NCBI GenBank assembly: GCA_003483065.1
Contig: DMWY01000008.1
Coordinates: 2,177-66,176 of the forward strand
Length of the DNA: 64,000 bases
From: Candidatus Moraniibacteriota bacterium
GTDB lineage: Bacteria; Patescibacteriota; Minisyncoccia; Moranbacterales; UBA2206
Direction: 5' to 3'
Shown here: in pieces, positions 2,819-45,780 of the stretch
Numbering within the stretch: position 1 is the first letter of the stretch
Layout: each line of letters begins with the position of its first letter
Program-made: the position numbers and the translations under genes
The notes under the pieces: model-generated
Told to the model about the DNA's origin: nothing
Databases searched by the model: none
The model's input: the letters and a program-made list of their open reading frames with translations, nothing else

Positions 2819-5800
2819 TCTCTACATAATTATCTATGTGATGACGGTATTAGTCTGTTTGGCTATGCTATATTTTCTTTTGAAGCAAGCCAAGAAAACA
2901 GCTTCTTCAAGAGCGTTAGTTTGGTTAATTTTCATTACTACTATTTGGACTGTGGTGGAAATTTTAGCCTCAATAGGATTTATTGTTAACGAAATAATCC
3001 ATCTGTATCTTTGGCGATCTGCTTTTTTTCTTGGTGGCATAACAACCTATTCTCTTTTGTGTTTCATTTTGACATTTTTTGAAATATGCAAGAAAATAAA
3101 TTTTAAAATAAAATTAATTACTGGCCTTGTCTTAGGTATCCTTTCTTTTTATTTGACGATAATATCCTCCGGAACGGTTAAGAATATTTTGACGAATCGG
3201 GCAATCTGGGAAATTGGATACGAAACAGGTCAGCTATTTCCGCTCACGGTTATGGTCGTTGGCTTTCCGATGTTGGCATCTCTTTTATTCACACTTTGGA
3301 AATATTTTACTGCAAAAAATGAAAAAAATAAAAAACAGTATGGGCTTATGACGATGGGTATTTTTTCTCCAGCCATCGGAGGAGTGTTAACAAATCTAAT
3401 TTTACCGCTACTGGGTATTGTCCATTTTCCTCGCTTGGCTAATTTTTCTTCAGTTATTTTGATTGGGGTATTGTTCTATGTGATATATGAGTTGAATGCT
3501 TTCAAGGGAGAGATAAAAAGATATTCCATTCGTTTTAGATTGGTTATTATGGTGGTCGCCATAACTTTTTTTGGAAGTCTAATTGGATTTTTTGTTTATT
3601 ATTCGAACTCAATGAATGTTTTGAATCAAGAGGTATATAGGAATTTTGATTCAATCACTCAAATAAAATCATATGAGTTGCAAAACTTTCTAAACTTTCA
3701 AAAATCTAAATTGGATCTGACGATAAAAAGCTCAATCGTAATTGGTGAATTATTCAATAAGGTGGAGCAGGATGAAGAATATTTTGCCATAATGGAAAAA
3801 GTAAAAAATAAATTAAACTTGATTTCTGATAAAGAAATTAGAGAAATCATTCTTTTGGACAAGAATGGACGAATTGTGGCTGTTTCGAAAAATAGTTCAG
3901 AAGAAGGGAAGGATTATAGTCAAAAAGAAGAATATAAGAATGCACTGAATAGGGATTTTATCAGTGATATTAGAAAAGAAGAAAATTTGGAAAAATATTA
4001 TTTCACCATTTCCGTCCCATATTTTGAGTCTCAAAGTAATAAATTTCAAGGAATGATTATTGGAAAAATTGATGCCCAAGTTATTGAAAATTTGCTGGCA
4101 GAAAAAATAGATTTGGGGGATACGGGTGAAATATTTTTACTCAACAGGGAAAAAAAGCTTATTACTGCTACAAAATATTTAGGACGGGAGGAAATACTCA
4201 ACAAAAAAATTGAAACCATAAGCTCAACAGAATGTTTTACTGAAAAAAATAAAGAATATTCTGATCATAAAGCGGTGAATAAATTTTTAGACTATCGTAA
4301 TATTGAAGTTATCGGAACGCATGCCTATATCGCGCAAATGAATTGGTGTCTGGTTTCCAAAATTGATCAAAAAGAAATTACAGATAAATATGAAAAAGGT
4401 TTGTCAATTATTTTCTTCCTTTCTTTGATAATAATAATAATTGTATCTTCTTTAGTGGCATATTTTTATTCTCTCACTATTTCTCGACCAATTGCTGATT
4501 TGCAAGATGGAGCACAAGAATTATCCCGAGGAAACTTGGATTATAAGGTAGAAATTGATTCAAGAGATGAATTTGGACAATTAGCCGGAGTGTTTAATTT
4601 TATGGGGCAAAAACTCAAGGAAACATACTCTTCACTAGAAAAAAAGGTTAAAGAAAGAACAAGAGAATTGGAAAAATCAATCACAGAAATGGATAATTCT
4701 CGAAAGGCCATGCTTAATATTTTGGAAGATGTGGATGAAGAGAAAAATAAAACTCAAGAAGAAAAAGAAAAGATTAGTGCAATCTTGCATAGTATTGGGG
4801 ATGGAGTTTTTGTGGTAGATGATCAGGCTAAAATAATTATGATTAATCAAGTGACTTCAGATATTTCAGGTTTCAGTCAAGAGGAGTTAATTGGAAAGAG
4901 ATATGATAAAATTTTGCATTTTGTTCAAGATTCTCAAACAGAAAAGATAATTTATGATTTCGTTGGTGAAGCCATAGCAAGTGGAAAAACTAGAGAAATG
5001 CCGATTCATACTATGCTTGTGCGTAAGGATGGTGAAAAAATTCCCGTATCTGATAGTGCCGCTCCTTTGAAAAATGAAAAAAACAAAGTTGTTGGTTGTG
5101 TAGTAGTTTTTCGTGATATAGCCAAGGAATATCAAGTAGACAAGGCGAAAACAGAATTTGTTTCCTTAGCATCTCATCAATTACGCACTCCACTTTCAGC
5201 GATTAATTGGTATACAGAGATGCTTTTAGCAGGGGATGCTGGTGAGCTCAATAAGGAACAAAGAAGTTTTATGGATGAAATATACAATGGCAATCAAAGG
5301 ATGGTGGAGTTAGTAAACTCACTGCTGAATGTTTCCAGAATCGAGCTTGGCACTTTGGCGATTGAACCAAGGCCGACTGATTTCGCAAAAATTTCAAATA
5401 ATGTAGTAAAAGAATTGATTAATGAGATAAAAATCAAACAATTAAAAGTTAAAGAAAATTATGCCAAAAACATACCACTCATCAATGCTGATCCAAATTT
5501 AACTCGAATTATCTTTCAAAATATCATAACCAACGCAGTTAAATATACACCAGAAAAAGGAAAAATTGATATTATTCTTGAAAAAGAAAGCAAAAATTTA
5601 CTCATCAAGATTTCCGATACTGGTTATGGAATCCCAGATAATCAAAAAGATAGAATTTTCCAAAAACTTTTCCGCGCGGACAATGTTCGAGAAAAAGATA
5701 CGAATGGTAGCGGATTGGGGCTATATTTAGTAAAATCAATTGTGGAGCAGTCAGAAGGAGAGATTTGGTTTGAATCAAAAGAAAACAAGGGCACAACTTT

Positions 5801-5861
5801 TTTTGTACGCATTCCACTTTCTGGAATGAAGAAAAAAGAAGGCTCTAAAACATTAAATTAA
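2808..5861 (+). CDS. Large multidomain sensor histidine kinase (polytopic N-terminus, Cache-like, HAMP, PAS, HisKA, HATPase_c)
   Basis: About 7 N-terminal TM helices. H-box SLASHQLRTPLSAINWYTEML. HATPase G-boxes DTGYGIP and GSGLGLYLVKSIVE. Signalling helix ERTRELEKSITEMDNSRKAMLNILED lies between HAMP and PAS. Confidence 0.85.
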   Translation: MINNLYIIIYVMTVLVCLAMLYFLLKQAKKTASSRALVWLIFITTIWTVVEILASIGFIVNEIIHLYLWRSAFFLGGITTYSLLCFILTFFEICKKINFKIKLITGLVLGILSFYLTIISSGTVKNILTNRAIWEIGYETGQLFPLTVMVVGFPMLASLLFTLWKYFTAKNEKNKKQYGLMTMGIFSPAIGGVLTNLILPLLGIVHFPRLANFSSVILIGVLFYVIYELNAFKGEIKRYSIRFRLVIMVVAITFFGSLIGFFVYYSNSMNVLNQEVYRNFDSITQIKSYELQNFLNFQKSKLDLTIKSSIVIGELFNKVEQDEEYFAIMEKVKNKLNLISDKEIREIILLDKNGRIVAVSKNSSEEGKDYSQKEEYKNALNRDFISDIRKEENLEKYYFTISVPYFESQSNKFQGMIIGKIDAQVIENLLAEKIDLGDTGEIFLLNREKKLITATKYLGREEILNKKIETISSTECFTEKNKEYSDHKAVNKFLDYRNIEVIGTHAYIAQMNWCLVSKIDQKEITDKYEKGLSIIFFLSLIIIIIVSSLVAYFYSLTISRPIADLQDGAQELSRGNLDYKVEIDSRDEFGQLAGVFNFMGQKLKETYSSLEKKVKERTRELEKSITEMDNSRKAMLNILEDVDEEKNKTQEEKEKISAILHSIGDGVFVVDDQAKIIMINQVTSDISGFSQEELIGKRYDKILHFVQDSQTEKIIYDFVGEAIASGKTREMPIHTMLVRKDGEKIPVSDSAAPLKNEKNKVVGCVVVFRDIAKEYQVDKAKTEFVSLASHQLRTPLSAINWYTEMLLAGDAGELNKEQRSFMDEIYNGNQRMVELVNSLLNVSRIELGTLAIEPRPTDFAKISNNVVKELINEIKIKQLKVKENYAKNIPLINADPNLTRIIFQNIITNAVKYTPEKGKIDIILEKESKNLLIKISDTGYGIPDNQKDRIFQKLFRADNVREKDTNGSGLGLYLVKSIVEQSEGEIWFESKENKGTTFFVRIPLSGMKKKEGSKTLN

Positions 5862-5866
5862 AAAAA

Positions 5867-6256
5867 ATGAATAAAAAAAATCCAGTCGTATTAGTAGTTG
5901 AAGATGAAAAACCACTTCAGGAGGCGATAAAAATTAAATTGGAGTTAAATGGCTTCGATACTGTGACAGCTAGATCAGTAGAACAAGCAATTAATTTTTT
6001 GAGAGACATTAAAAATGTGGATGCTATTTGGTTGGATCACTATCTTTTAGGTAAAGAAAATGGGCTGGATTTTGTGGCTAAGTTAAAGGAGAAAAAAGAG
6101 TGGAAAAAAATTCCGATTTTTATAGTTTCTAATACTGCTAGTCAAGAAAAGGTAAAATCCTATATGAGCCTCGGAGTAGAAAAATATTATGTGAAAGCCA
6201 ATTATAGGTTGGATGATATTATAAAAGACATAAAGAGTAGTTTAAAATTAAAATAA
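5867..6256 (+). CDS. Single-domain response regulator (CheY-like receiver)
   Basis: Receiver motifs VVLVVEDE, WLDHYL (phospho-accepting Asp), IFIVS and K near the C-terminus. No output domain. Confidence 0.8.
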   Translation: MNKKNPVVLVVEDEKPLQEAIKIKLELNGFDTVTARSVEQAINFLRDIKNVDAIWLDHYLLGKENGLDFVAKLKEKKEWKKIPIFIVSNTASQEKVKSYMSLGVEKYYVKANYRLDDIIKDIKSSLKLK

Positions 6257-6260
6257 TTTT

Positions 6261-6629
6261 ATGAACAAAAAAATTATTATCATTGAGGACGAATTATCTT
6301 TGCGAAGTGTTTTGGCAGAAAAATTAAAATCTGATGGTTTTGAAGTTTTGGAAGCTAAGAATGGCCAAGAGGGCTTGGAAATTTCAATCAGCCAAAAACC
6401 TGATTTAATTCTTTTGGATATAGTGATGCCTAAAATGGATGGCCTAACAATGCTAGAAAAACTTAGAGAGGATAGTTGGGGAAAGAAAGTGCCAGTCATT
6501 ATTCTTACTAATCTAAGTTCCGGGGCGGAAATGTCAAGATCGGCCGAAGGCGGAGTTTCTGGCTATCTAGTCAAGACAGACTGGAAATTGGATGATGTAG
6601 TCAAAAAGATAAAAGAGACACTAAAATAA
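6261..6629 (+). CDS. Single-domain response regulator (CheY-like receiver)
   Basis: KIIIIEDE, LILLDIVMPKMDG, VPVIILTN and GYLVK motifs. Paralogous to the receiver at 33812. Confidence 0.85.
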   Translation: MNKKIIIIEDELSLRSVLAEKLKSDGFEVLEAKNGQEGLEISISQKPDLILLDIVMPKMDGLTMLEKLREDSWGKKVPVIILTNLSSGAEMSRSAEGGVSGYLVKTDWKLDDVVKKIKETLK

Positions 6630-43635: not shown

Positions 43636-43651
43636 AAGAATTAGAAAACAA

Positions 43652-43677
43652 AAACACTGCGATGAGCAGTGTTTTTT
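43652..43677. terminator. Bidirectional Rho-independent terminator between the pilus operon (+) and the tRNA operon (-)
   Basis: AAAACACTGC gatgag GCAGTGTTTT perfect 10-bp stem with A/T runs on both sides. Confidence 0.7.
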
Positions 43678-43683
43678 ATTTTG

Positions 43684-43756
43684 TGCGCCGGGCAGGAATC
43701 GAACCTGCGACCAATAGCTTAGAAGGCTACTGCTCTATCCACTGAGCTACCGGCGC
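43684..43756 (-). tRNA. tRNA-Arg (anticodon TCT)
   Basis: Reverse complement GCGCCGGTAGCTCAGTGGATAGAGCAGTAGCCTTCTAAGCTATTGGTCGCAGGTTCGATTCCTGCCCGGCGCA folds as a cloverleaf with anticodon loop CTTCTAA. CCA not encoded. Confidence 0.85.
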
Positions 43757-43837
43757 ATCTTTGTTTTATTGTTGAGTAATGGGGGAGAAGGGGAGATAGA
43801 ATTTTATTCTGCCTCACGCCTTCTCCATTTTTTCTCC

Positions 43838-44071
43838 CTATATCCAGTTCCATAGGGGAAAAGGGATTTTCCCAAGCCAGTTTTCCCACCAGCTTAAGTT
43901 TCTTTCTATTTTTATTCTCCCCTCCCTTTTTTTCCAGGTGAAAATAACTTCTTCATACCCACAATTTGGACATTTAAAACAAAATATCCCTGGCTCTTGT
44001 TCCACGAACATCCATACTGCTTCCCAGACTGCCGTACATTTTGGCGCCGGGCAAGGTTTTTTTTGTGCCAT
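43838..44071 (-). CDS. Small zinc-ribbon protein (CxxxxC...CxxC) encoded inside the tRNA operon; C-terminal extent uncertain
   Basis: Strong SD (AAAGGAGGTG, 4-nt spacer) before ATG at 44071. MAQKKPCPAPKCTAVWEAV...CFKCPNCG. The 3' half reads through a purine/pyrimidine-tract region and may not be real coding sequence. Confidence 0.45.
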   Translation of the reverse strand: MAQKKPCPAPKCTAVWEAVWMFVEQEPGIFCFKCPNCGYEEVIFTWKKREGRIKIERNLSWWENWLGKIPFPLWNWI

Positions 44072-44113
44072 TTGGCACCTCCTTTTTTTAAATCGTTTTT
44101 ATTATTTCTCCTG

Positions 44114-44185
44114 GGCGGTCACTGGGAATCGAACCCAAATTCTCGGTACCACAAACCGATGTCTTAGCCACTAGACGATGACCGC
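44114..44185 (-). tRNA. tRNA-His (anticodon GTG) with encoded G-1
   Basis: Reverse complement gGCGGTCATCGTCTAGTGGCTAAGACATCGGTTTGTGGTACCGAGAATTTGGGTTCGATTCCCAGTGACCGCC c. Anticodon loop TTGTGGT. Extra 5' G pairs with the discriminator C, as in bacterial tRNA-His. Confidence 0.8.
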
Positions 44186-44201
44186 CATATATTATTTTTT
44201 T

Positions 44202-44274
44202 GTGCACCCACCGGGACTCGAACCTGGGACCATATCCTTAAGAGGGATCTGCTCTACCAACTGAGCTATGGGTG
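44202..44274 (-). tRNA. tRNA-Lys (anticodon CTT)
   Basis: Reverse complement GCACCCATAGCTCAGTTGGTAGAGCAGATCCCTCTTAAGGATATGGTCCCAGGTTCGAGTCCCGGTGGGTGCA. Anticodon loop CTCTTAA. Confidence 0.85.
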
Positions 44275-44290
44275 CGTCGTCGCTATTTCT

Positions 44291-44363
44291 TGAAATTTTG
44301 TGCGCCCGGCAGGAATCGGACCTACAACCCCTTGGTTCGAAGCCAAGTACTCTATCCATTGAG
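44291..44363 (-). tRNA. tRNA-Arg (anticodon TCG)
   Basis: Reverse complement GCGCCCGTAGCTCAATGGATAGAGTACTTGGCTTCGAACCAAGGGGTTGTAGGTCCGATTCCTGCCGGGCGCA. Anticodon loop CTTCGAA. Confidence 0.85.
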
Positions 44364-44407
44364 CTACGGGCGCGTCGTCGTTATCAATCCTCTTTACAAC
44401 ATATAAA

Positions 44408-44436
44408 ATACTAGCTTAAATAAATGGCCTAGTCAA
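44408..44436 (-). promoter_or_regulatory. Sigma-70-type promoter of the minus-strand tRNA operon
   Basis: On the minus strand TTGACT, 17 nt, TAGTAT, about 40 nt upstream of tRNA-Arg(TCG). Confidence 0.6.
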
Positions 44437-44442
44437 CTGATT

Positions 44443-45780
44443 CTACATGTTGTGTTCACTTTTGTACCTTCTCCATTCTTTGTCTGACCAATCCTTTGGT
44501 TTTTCAGTGAGGGTATTTTCGGCGCCTGGGTGAGGATATTTATTGGGAGAATCATAGGCGCTATTAAAAACATCCTCCCGAATAAGTTTCTCATTTTTAT
44601 CAAAAACTTGCTGAGTGAAAGTGGTTTTTAGCGAGCCGTCGGGTTTTTTTTCTAAAACAGTCGGGCCGATAACATTCGTTTTTCTTCCGTCATTTGTTCC
44701 GTAGAAATTGAAAATTAATTCTTTGCCTTCGATTTTTGTTTCGATAAGAATGTGTCCAGGAGTGTTGTTTTTAAAACGCAAATCTGGAAGAGGAACGTAA
44801 ACAGTAGCATCCATTCCTTGCGGATTATAATAACTCACTGGATAAGCGTGGTTTCTTCTGGCAGTTATTTCAAGCCCGGAATTTATCGCAGCACGAAAAG
44901 CGGTGGTAGAAACTTGGCAAATTCCTCCGCCAAATTCTGGTTCAGTCTTATCATGTTTAATGACTAGTTCTGGAAGATAACCATGCTCGCCGTCTACTTC
45001 TCCGAGAATTTTCACGAAAGAAAATTCTTCTTCAGACTTAATGAGAACTCCATTGAATCTTTTGGTGGCTACATTGATATTGAATATCCTATTTTTTGGC
45101 GAACCGGCAAAATTTGATTTTCCAGTTCCAATGAGACTGGTAATGCCTAAATTATTTTGTGAATCGGAAGAAATTTCCGGTTGGATTTTTTGTGTTGGCA
45201 GATCAAGCGAAGCTGAAAAATTTTGTGCTAATAGAAAGTCCCTAAGAATTTGGACGCTTTTTTCTTCATCAAGCTTTATCCCTGGGCTGGAAAGAGCAAA
45301 AACAGAAACCCTTCCGTCAGTTATTTCAAATTTTGCATCCAAGGGATCCTTGTTGGTTTTTCTAGCTAAGTCTCTGGTAAAATTTTCAATTGCATCGGTA
45401 TTAATACTAAGGGTATATTTTTTCTTGATATGTTTTTGATTTTCATAGGGAAAGGAAAGTCGACATTCGAGAGATTTTTCATATTGGCAAAAATTGATAT
45501 TTTCTATTTCAGAAAAATATTTAGAGTCAAAAGCAAGGTAATTTTTTTCTTTTAACCAAGTGGAAATTTCTGACTTCGTCAAGGAGTAGGGGGCGCCATT
45601 TACAATTAAATTTAAATCAGTCGGAATTTTTTCTAATATTTCAGCTGGCAAAATCTGGGCAGAAATATTCCCTGGCCAAAAAGCCAGAGTGAAAAAATAG
45701 GCGATTAAGATGTATTTTCTAGTTTGCATAGCTTTAATATACCATAAATAGAAAGAAAAACACAGAATCATCTGTGTCAT
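44443..45780 (-). CDS. VanW-domain protein (membrane-anchored)
   Basis: VanW signature FGGGICQVSTTAFRAAINSGLEITARRNHAYPVSYY. N-terminal TM. The likely true start is the internal Met (MQTRKY, about 45729). Confidence 0.7.
   Translation of the reverse strand: MTQMILCFSFYLWYIKAMQTRKYILIAYFFTLAFWPGNISAQILPAEILEKIPTDLNLIVNGAPYSLTKSEISTWLKEKNYLAFDSKYFSEIENINFCQYEKSLECRLSFPYENQKHIKKKYTLSINTDAIENFTRDLARKTNKDPLDAKFEITDGRVSVFALSSPGIKLDEEKSVQILRDFLLAQNFSASLDLPTQKIQPEISSDSQNNLGITSLIGTGKSNFAGSPKNRIFNINVATKRFNGVLIKSEEEFSFVKILGEVDGEHGYLPELVIKHDKTEPEFGGGICQVSTTAFRAAINSGLEITARRNHAYPVSYYNPQGMDATVYVPLPDLRFKNNTPGHILIETKIEGKELIFNFYGTNDGRKTNVIGPTVLEKKPDGSLKTTFTQQVFDKNEKLIREDVFNSAYDSPNKYPHPGAENTLTEKPKDWSDKEWRRYKSEHNM

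Follow-up and report, generated by a model that had tools for sequence, protein, structure and literature searches.

A 356-bp cassette with a putative zinc-ribbon reading frame inside a tRNA operon of a Moranbacteria species: a candidate accessory minigene

Organization of the tRNA operon

The stretch of DNA considered here, referred to as the window, comprises 64 kb of the genome of a groundwater member of the Moranbacteria (Candidate Phyla Radiation, CPR, or Patescibacteria), and carries on its minus strand an operon of four tRNA genes, the third and fourth of which are separated by a segment of 356 bp, the cassette, containing a small open reading frame (ORF) of 77 codons (Table 1). A first examination based on the letters of the window and on its ORFs (the sequence-only reading) had proposed the order promoter, tRNA-Arg(TCG), tRNA-Lys, tRNA-His and tRNA-Arg(TCT) on the minus strand, and a gap of 360 bp before the last gene; ARAGORN and Rfam agree on the four tRNA genes, and the gap exists, its true length being 356 bp (43757-44112). 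None of the four tRNA genes encodes its CCA end.

The operon has the features of a polycistronic tRNA unit, with tRNA genes on the same strand lying between one promoter-like site and one terminator, both of them predicted signals. Within the cassette, no promoter or terminator was called on the same strand except for one weak match (9/12). Since there is no internal terminator, and a single conserved promoter and a single conserved terminator were found, tRNA-Arg(TCT) should be reachable only through the cassette, and the prediction that the four tRNAs and the cassette form one transcription unit is well supported. In addition, AGA and AGG account for 50% of the Arg codons in the genes of the window; this tRNA being needed and reachable only in that way, transcription of the cassette is probably as strong as that of a tRNA which the cell requires.

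Table 1. Features of the tRNA operon and the cassette in the window, with the corresponding elements of the second cassette (locus L016)
Feature	Position	Strand	Description	Counterpart in L016
Promoter-like site, TTGACT-17-TAGTAT	44408..44436	-	GTTGACTAG...GGCTAGTATTT; also 5' of the first tRNA in L211, L212 and L215	
tRNA-Arg(TCG)	44300-44373	-	ARAGORN and Rfam, 67.2 bits	
tRNA-Lys(CTT)	44202-44275	-	ARAGORN and Rfam, 63.8 bits	
tRNA-His(GTG)	44113-44185	-	ARAGORN and Rfam, 58.1 bits; no encoded CCA	
Gap (cassette), 356 bp	43757-44112	-	Starts at the base after the tRNA-His discriminator C	
5' junction motif	44098-44112	-	AGGAGAAATAATAAA, also written AGGAGAAATAATAAAAAC	(T)AGGAGAATAAATAAA, also written TAGGAGAATAAATAAATAAC
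Shine-Dalgarno sequence	44076-44085	-	AAAGGAGGTG, 4 nt from ATG; 6 nt counted from the GGAGG core	AAGGAGGT, 5 nt, GTG start
Small hairpin GUGCC-AAAU-GGCAC	44065-44078	-	Covers the 3' end of the Shine-Dalgarno sequence and the start codon; -8.3 kcal/mol, z = -3.84	
ORF	43838-44071	-	77 codons, ATG start; N-terminal ~45 amino acids, putative C4 zinc ribbon	49 codons (..ECPYCG..EQDNGSFYYHCTNYFCNY..)
Copy of tRNA-Arg(TCT) 3' end and trailer	44037-44053	-	TGCCCGGCGC-CAAAAT, 16/17 bases; encodes C7-P-A-P-K-C12	
Hairpin A	43871-43898	-	CUUAAGCUGGU/ACUGGCUUGGG; in ORF tail; -13.3 kcal/mol, z = -6.17	
Hairpin B	43830-43862	-	UUUUCCCCUAUG/AUAUAGGGAGAAAA; includes ORF stop codon; z = -2.0	
Terminal hairpin C	43782-43826	-	GGAGAAGG..GAGG / CCUC..CCUUCUCC; then C run, ~25 AT-rich nt, tRNA-Arg	GGGGAGG/CCUCCCC, ~22 nt before tRNA-Arg
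tRNA-Arg(TCT)	43683-43756	-	ARAGORN and Rfam, 76.3 bits	
Operon terminator	43650-43676	-	Hairpin with 11-bp stem, then T-run; kept in L011 and L014	

Distribution of the cassette

The comparison was anchored on the adjacent VanW-family gene and included 80 syntenic loci from GTDB species representatives and eight more obtained via protein look-ups, designated here by L numbers. Among the relatives whose His-Arg spacer can be read, the six closest (L011-L015 and L212; VanW 81-95% identical, with conserved synteny on either side) agree with the window in tRNA order, and their spacer between tRNA-His and tRNA-Arg(TCT) measures 17-23 nt. In 59 other species with tRNA-His next to tRNA-Arg, the spacers have a median of 24 nt and a maximum of 278 nt, all of them exceeded by the 356 bp of the window, and the GC content of the cassette is 0.40 vs 0.356 for the window. 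The window species and L016 carry a cassette, and L011-L015, L212, L017, L216 and about 55 others do not; among the loci reached by looking up VanW homologues, L212 and L216-L218 all lack it.

Directly 3' of tRNA-His, 30 of 63 loci, distant ones included (for instance L017, L022, L024, L039 and L058), carry a conserved trailer motif, (C)CTGTAGATTT(C). Both cassettes lack it; the cassette therefore took the place of the spacer rather than being simply inserted, and the relatives cannot have obtained their spacers by deleting a cassette. L016 is an outgroup of the clade holding the window species and its cassette-free relatives, the further outgroups L017 and L216 being also without a cassette; this position, together with the replacement of the spacer, implies at least two acquisitions. 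The gap is an acquired, lineage-specific cassette standing in place of a spacer of ~20 nt, and no ancestral part of the operon, and the cassette is, or was, probably mobile between genomes. In the window species the cassette is fixed, with 16 contigs from several samples, of the same species and context, carrying an identical ORF. The sequence-only reading had made its proposal depend on conservation of the ORF in relatives, and this was largely not found, as the six closest ones have only the 17-23-nt spacer and two protein searches retrieve only the ORF itself, although L016 does hold a diverged cassette with a strong Shine-Dalgarno (SD) sequence and a C4 zinc-ribbon ORF.

Three contigs (L211, L214, L215) end within or just before the tRNA cluster. 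Such breaks fit repeats or strain variation disrupting assembly, and cassette-bearing variants may be under-sampled. As regards variation next to the cluster, the population contigs L009 and L010 differ from the window at 44500-44800 by 10-16 single nucleotide polymorphisms (SNPs) clustered in the 3' part of VanW, with none over the adjacent ~1 kb that spans the tRNA cluster with its cassette and the terminator; the limit between both regions could be a recombination boundary or the result of a chimeric assembly.

A second cassette

The second cassette belongs to the Patescibacteria metagenome-assembled genome RA.bin81 (L016), whose VanW is 76% identical to that of the window, and the same sequence occurs in L131 and L213. 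Its spacer of 278 bp begins right after the tRNA-His discriminator, with the same junction and orientation as in the window, and it includes the same 5' motif, an SD sequence with a start codon at matching spacing, a short ORF and a terminal hairpin (Table 1). A perfect AAGGAGGT has been retained in both cassettes although the other DNA is near saturation. The global DNA alignment of the cassettes gave z = 4.6, while 18 other large spacers of the cluster reach at most 2.75, and the local protein alignment gave a score of 46, attained by 3 of 1000 composition-preserving shuffles. When the nine frame pairs were compared, the highest score corresponded to ORF by ORF (56), followed by other co-registered pairs (45 and 44), with the rest at 20-33. 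The MAFFT alignment contains 13 identities in the first 40 amino acids (K5, C7, P8, C12, M21, E24, Q25, G28, F30, C34, N36, C37 and Y39). The cysteine pairs are placed as C7-x4-C12 and C34-x2-C37 in the window and as C-x2-C and C-x4-C in L016, the four cysteines being aligned, with an AlphaFold model that is unreliable. Taken as a whole, these comparisons make it quite probable that both cassettes are homologous, the statistical support being moderate. As for further members, a metagenome scan with the pattern GTGAYCGCCCN{0,1}AGGAGAA yielded, among the matches listed, only L131 as relevant, the others being GC-rich coding sequences, and two scans of viral contigs for cassette homologues gave nothing relevant.

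The reading frame and its translation signals

The SD sequence preceding the ORF, which the sequence-only reading had considered one of the strongest in the window, proved to be the longest match (9 nt) among the 51 long ORFs, and it is the sole AAGGAGG in the 64 kb with an ORF of at least 50 amino acids after it. Upstream of the first start codon (starts uncurated), 39 of the 51 long ORFs have no SD match of at least 4 nt, and only 8 of the 58 GGAGG motifs in the window precede an ORF of at least 50 amino acids. In general, SD use looks low in the genome of the window species. The fact that the SD has been kept in both near-saturated cassettes, even though strong SDs are rare in the genome, points to selection on translation. 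The small hairpin over the start codon (GUGCC-AAAU-GGCAC) is absent in L016.

The ORF has five cysteines (C7-x4-C12, C31, C34-x2-C37) and no His residue, and includes the peptides CPNCGYEEVIFTWK, NLSWWENWLGK and IPFPLWNWI; its C-terminal ~30 amino acids are Trp-rich and overlap hairpins A and B. The cysteine pattern CxxxxC...CxxC noticed in the sequence-only reading is present, and a zinc ribbon is plausible, but no profile reaches its threshold. The ORF scored below threshold with HVO_2753_ZBP (PF07754; 14.9 bits vs a cut-off of 33.2, E = 0.024), and so did that of L016 with Lar (PF14354; 21.4 bits vs 28.6, E = 3e-4) and Zn_ribbon_Top1 (PF01396; 18.1 bits vs 32, E = 0.08), while the best match among PDB sequences was a weak one to eS27 (E = 0.028). 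With such small stand-alone C4 zinc-ribbon proteins (Topo I-type PF01396, Lar PF14354, HVO_2753-like PF07754, eS27) the ORF has in common two Cys pairs ~20 residues apart and the pattern ...G-x-F-x-x-x-C-x-N-(x0-2)-C-x-Y; it differs from them in its Cx4C first knuckle, in that no match attains the threshold of its family, and in a structure model of low confidence. A tblastn search of phage genomes gave nothing significant for the ORF.

The first knuckle coincides with a copy of the 3' end of tRNA-Arg(TCT), whose source lies 359 bp downstream. The score of this alignment was reached by 1 of 500 shuffles, and its exact 10-mer occurs at two sites only in the 64 kb vs 0.04 expected. At the place of this knuckle, L016 has TGCCCGTATTGT (C-P-Y-C), and the CPAPKC of the window species may be a former CxxC altered by a short template switch to the tRNA end close by, or by conversion from it. 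Both the Trp-rich tail and the tRNA-derived Cx4C knuckle are probably secondary and species-specific. For the zinc-ribbon core, the chances that it is translated and under selection appear to be about even.

Other insertions in the tRNA cluster

The same tRNA cluster contains further ORFs in its spacers in other species: one of 79 amino acids with a GIY-YIG domain (L061, 5333-5678; Pfam, 9e-19), one of 172 amino acids with an HNH domain (L070, 5731-6351; PHROG, 2.5e-17), and a helix-turn-helix (HTH) protein of 259 amino acids with a LAGLIDADG-like motif, 'LYWAEGNK', which no profile confirms (L022, 5447-6242). With these homing-endonuclease-type ORFs (GIY-YIG, HNH and HTH/LAGLIDADG-like), the cluster appears to be a recurrent landing pad for selfish genes. 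Moreover, L015, a close relative (VanW 80% identical), has between tRNA-Lys and tRNA-His an ORF-less insertion of 617 bp and 29% GC (5662-6278), unrelated to the cassette (z = 2.2).

Tandem tRNA-like pseudo-units were also observed, at L059 (5740-6237), L053 (5395-5720), L012 (4855-4950), L056 (5828), L057 (5542) and L037 (7483), the array in L059 having a period of 93 nt and 100% identity. Every pseudo-unit has one and the same perfect palindrome of 16 nt, TCCGCCAGCTGGCGGA, in place of the 5' strand of its anticodon stem, whether the unit resembles Arg(TCT) (L059, L056, L012) or Lys (L053). In L012 (4850-4950), two GC-rich palindromes, TCCGCCAGCTGGCGGA and CCTGCCTGCCGGCAGGCAGG, break up a partial second copy of the 3' half of tRNA-Arg(TCT) that lies directly downstream of the genuine gene. 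The palindrome TCCGCCAGCTGGCGGA is absent from the window, and neither Rfam nor the literature gave a match. VanW of the pseudo-unit species is only 54-61% identical to that of the window, and the arrays are partly masked as N runs in the sequence collection.

The order of the isoacceptors varies as well. In L011-L015 and L212 it is Arg(TCG)-Lys-His-Arg(TCT), while in L016, L017, L211, L216 and most others it is Arg(TCT)-Lys-His-Arg(TCG); further orders, beginning with Lys, occur in other species. Between the two tRNA-Arg genes the identity is 80%, and this identity, together with the fact that they swap places, suggests frequent recombination or conversion within the cluster.

A candidate accessory minigene

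The reading that we favour, with a probability of about 0.5, is that the cassette is a small accessory minigene which has been acquired, is probably mobile, and would be co-transcribed with the tRNAs, released by tRNA processing and translated. In tRNA maturation, RNase Z cuts after the 3' end of CCA-less tRNAs and RNase P cuts at the tRNA 5' end. As the tRNAs have no encoded CCA, both cuts would release exactly the 356-nt segment. In this scheme the cassette would be transcribed at tRNA-operon levels; an RNase Z-type cut after tRNA-His would make the 5' end of an RNA of ~356 nt, and the RNase P cut at +1 of tRNA-Arg would make its 3' end, following the logic of 'tRNA punctuation'. The released RNA would be translated from its SD, while the terminal purine/pyrimidine hairpin, together with hairpins A and B in the window species, may shield the new 3' end from exonucleases. 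The cassette encodes no recombinase, and the simplest route for its spread or replacement would be homologous recombination through the near-invariant flanking tRNA genes. As to the role of the protein, nucleic-acid binding would be the default guess for such a ribbon.

A number of results weigh against this proposal. A word-indexed search of the ORF against 5.8e9 protein clusters returned only the ORF itself, and an exhaustive phmmer search against 1.84e9 representatives added to it one repeat protein (P0002, a repetitive zinc-knuckle protein; E = 8e-4); Pfam, PHROGs, NCBIfam and PDB sequences gave nothing significant for the ORF, and the L016 ORF was also without a match in the protein search. 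The Trp content of the ORF is 10.4% vs 1.1% in the genome, and its codon-usage score, 0.124 per codon, is only at the 6th percentile when compared with chunks of real genes (0.31 +/- 0.11), a value reached by 27% of spurious ORFs. The AlphaFold single-sequence model is unreliable (pLDDT 50.8). The last ~25 residues are encoded by the stable hairpins A and B, which have no counterpart in L016, and the first knuckle is Cx4C-spaced and copied from the 3' end of tRNA-Arg. Furthermore, no SNPs were seen in the cassette across the population contigs, variation being clustered elsewhere, and the case for homology rests on one second sequence, that of L016.

Alternative explanations

Much of this also suits a different explanation, possible though rather unlikely, in which the cassette is a non-functional relic, the decaying remainder either of a larger selfish insertion, for instance a homing-endonuclease gene of the free-standing type that included a zinc-finger module for binding DNA, or of tRNA fragments duplicated locally. 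In this view the ORF would be a leftover or a fortuitous frame, the hairpins would derive from slippage of purine/pyrimidine tracts, and the cassette would be tolerated because tRNA processing removes it. An orphan ORF with atypical composition and codon use, containing a fragment of a tRNA 3' end and giving a model of low confidence, is what would be expected in such a case; the Trp-rich tail would be simply UGG-rich hairpin sequence, and the spacers of relatives do hold truncated tRNA copies and endonuclease genes, as well as the ORF-less AT-rich insert of 617 bp in L015. Nevertheless, both near-saturated cassettes keep a perfect SD at the correct spacing from a start codon, and their frames have stayed open over 77 and 49 codons in AT-rich DNA, with four aligned cysteines. 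Moreover, the Pfam, PHROG and NCBIfam profiles found no nuclease domain (GIY-YIG, HNH, LAGLIDADG or PD-(D/E)xK) in the ORF, nor any remnant of one, other reading frames not having been scanned.

The G-tract/C-tract inverted repeats that the sequence-only reading had noted in the 3' half of the ORF were indeed found, and it had suggested that this part might be a structured RNA processed from the precursor. A structured non-coding RNA occupying the whole cassette or its 3' half, excised by RNase Z and RNase P, with the ORF being incidental, would have a parallel in the 'species 1/2' RNAs of phage T4, which are stable RNAs from a tRNA precursor. The 3' 179 nt of the cassette fold into three hairpins and a closing stem (z = -3.41), a stability reached by 0 of 200 shuffles, with hairpin A alone at z = -6.2, and the fold of the whole gap has z = -3.77. 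The position would guarantee a precise excision by the tRNA-processing enzymes, as follows from established maturation, and the tyrT operon with its rtT RNA represents a precedent (doi 10.1101/2024.07.17.603846). However, the 5' 177 nt are not significantly structured (z = -1.66), and hairpins A and B have no equivalent in L016, where only the terminal hairpin is found at the equivalent position (GGGGAGG/CCUCCCC); the features conserved in both cassettes are translational (SD, start and Cys codons), not structural. With Rfam 15 at E <= 10, the gap gave only noise (16-18 bits vs cut-offs of 39-85, E = 0.95-9); no family at all was thus identified, in line with the sequence-only reading, which had looked there for RNase P, transfer-messenger RNA and signal recognition particle RNA motifs and had not found them. 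At the gathering threshold, only tRNAs were found in the window, L016, L059, L053, L012 and L056. In view of all this, it is improbable that the cassette works as a structured RNA.

It has also been considered that the ORF could act as an attenuator, its translation sensing charged tRNA-Arg(UCU) via the codons AGG, AGA and AGA (positions 49, 52 and 57). These codons belong to a purine tract that could pair with hairpin C through the pyrimidine arm of the latter, and the output would be a tuned production or processing of tRNA-Arg(UCU). All three Arg codons of the ORF are AGR, decoded by the downstream tRNA, and the sole Arg codon of the L016 ORF is CGA, also decoded by its downstream tRNA-Arg(UCG), a neat but weak match (joint p ~0.02, with a background of 50% AGR and 14-18% CGA); in addition, alternative purine/pyrimidine pairings exist, and the stop codon of the ORF lies inside hairpin B, 11 nt ahead of hairpin C. 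Even so, attenuation is highly improbable, since hairpin C is followed by CCCAUUACUCAAC, with no U-tract and no terminator call on this strand, the CGA of L016 stands at codon 3 and thus a long way from 3' structures of any kind, the match involves two cassettes and four codons, and the closest relatives express the same tRNA without any leader.

Two classes of mobile element were rejected. For a transposon, a miniature inverted-repeat transposable element (MITE) or a repeated palindromic element, blastn and tblastn detected no further copy, whether within the 64-kb window or among the 80 related loci, and neither terminal inverted repeats nor a target-site duplication were seen at the junctions. 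As to an integrative element targeting tRNA genes, there is no integrase, and the copy of the tRNA 3' end lies upstream of an intact tRNA and inside the ORF, an arrangement which is not attL/attR-like.

Comparison with known systems

In E. coli, tufB is co-transcribed with four tRNAs (thrU-tyrU-glyT-thrT-tufB), and the distal repeats of the tyrT operon contain a copy of the tRNA 3' end. A protein gene between tRNAs had been regarded as unusual in the sequence-only reading, and so it is, but with precedents; besides the one just mentioned, the E. coli tyrT operon includes the small ORF tpr and the processed RNA rtT, co-transcribed with the tRNA genes (doi 10.1101/2024.07.17.603846). When this likeness was tested, the cassette was found to carry, in a non-tRNA segment, its own copy of the tRNA-Arg 3' end (16/17 nt). 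In contrast to tyrT, it has no match to rtT by sequence or Rfam and is without tandem 178-bp repeats, the repeat search giving only short chance matches; it is located between tRNAs, whereas the tyrT element is distal to them; and its ORF encodes a Cys-rich ribbon with a strong SD, whereas tpr encodes a protamine-like peptide.

In organellar transcripts, RNase P and RNase Z free the mRNAs by cutting at the tRNAs on either side (reviewed in PMC4394434). Both this tRNA punctuation and the tufB arrangement resemble the cassette in their logic, with the difference that the processing of the cassette is deduced from its position and that its cargo would be an orphan minigene and not a housekeeping gene. 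Regarding homing endonuclease genes, segB of phage T4 sits in a tRNA cluster (PMC2330249), and defunct homing elements can be moved in trans, as is I-TevIII by mobE (PMC2790892). The cassette shares with them a patchy presence and absence at one exact intergenic site between conserved genes, but its ORF has no nuclease domain and no His, and a cleavage activity is not inferable from it. The cassette is, therefore, a member of none of these families, whether tyrT/rtT, tRNA-punctuated mRNAs or homing genes.

A broader proposal can be formulated on this basis, although we regard it, with all its parts taken together, as unlikely: the cassettes of the window and of L016 would be the first two to have been sampled from a family of tiny, nuclease-less mobile minigenes in CPR tRNA operons, which would home into the spacer that follows tRNA-His, be transcribed from the tRNA promoter with their own mRNA freed by the RNase Z and RNase P cuts, and, in the window species, have built the first zinc knuckle de novo from the copied tRNA 3' end.

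Significance

The kind of element described here, a foreign or small ORF-RNA segment inside a tRNA operon, is already known; two members of this one are known, and the evidence for their function is thin. Whichever explanation holds, no long-standing question depends on the cassette, which is to be seen as a curiosity rather than a major discovery. As a relic, it would be just another insertion in a tRNA cluster which, in relatives, has been repeatedly invaded by homing-endonuclease genes and tRNA-derived repeats. If, on the other hand, the minigene is real, bacterial tRNA operons would host and express foreign protein genes by an organelle-like 'punctuation' logic, one more very young and fast-evolving small-protein gene would have been found, and conserved tRNA genes would serve as recombination anchors for tiny accessory cassettes in the otherwise streamlined genomes of the CPR.

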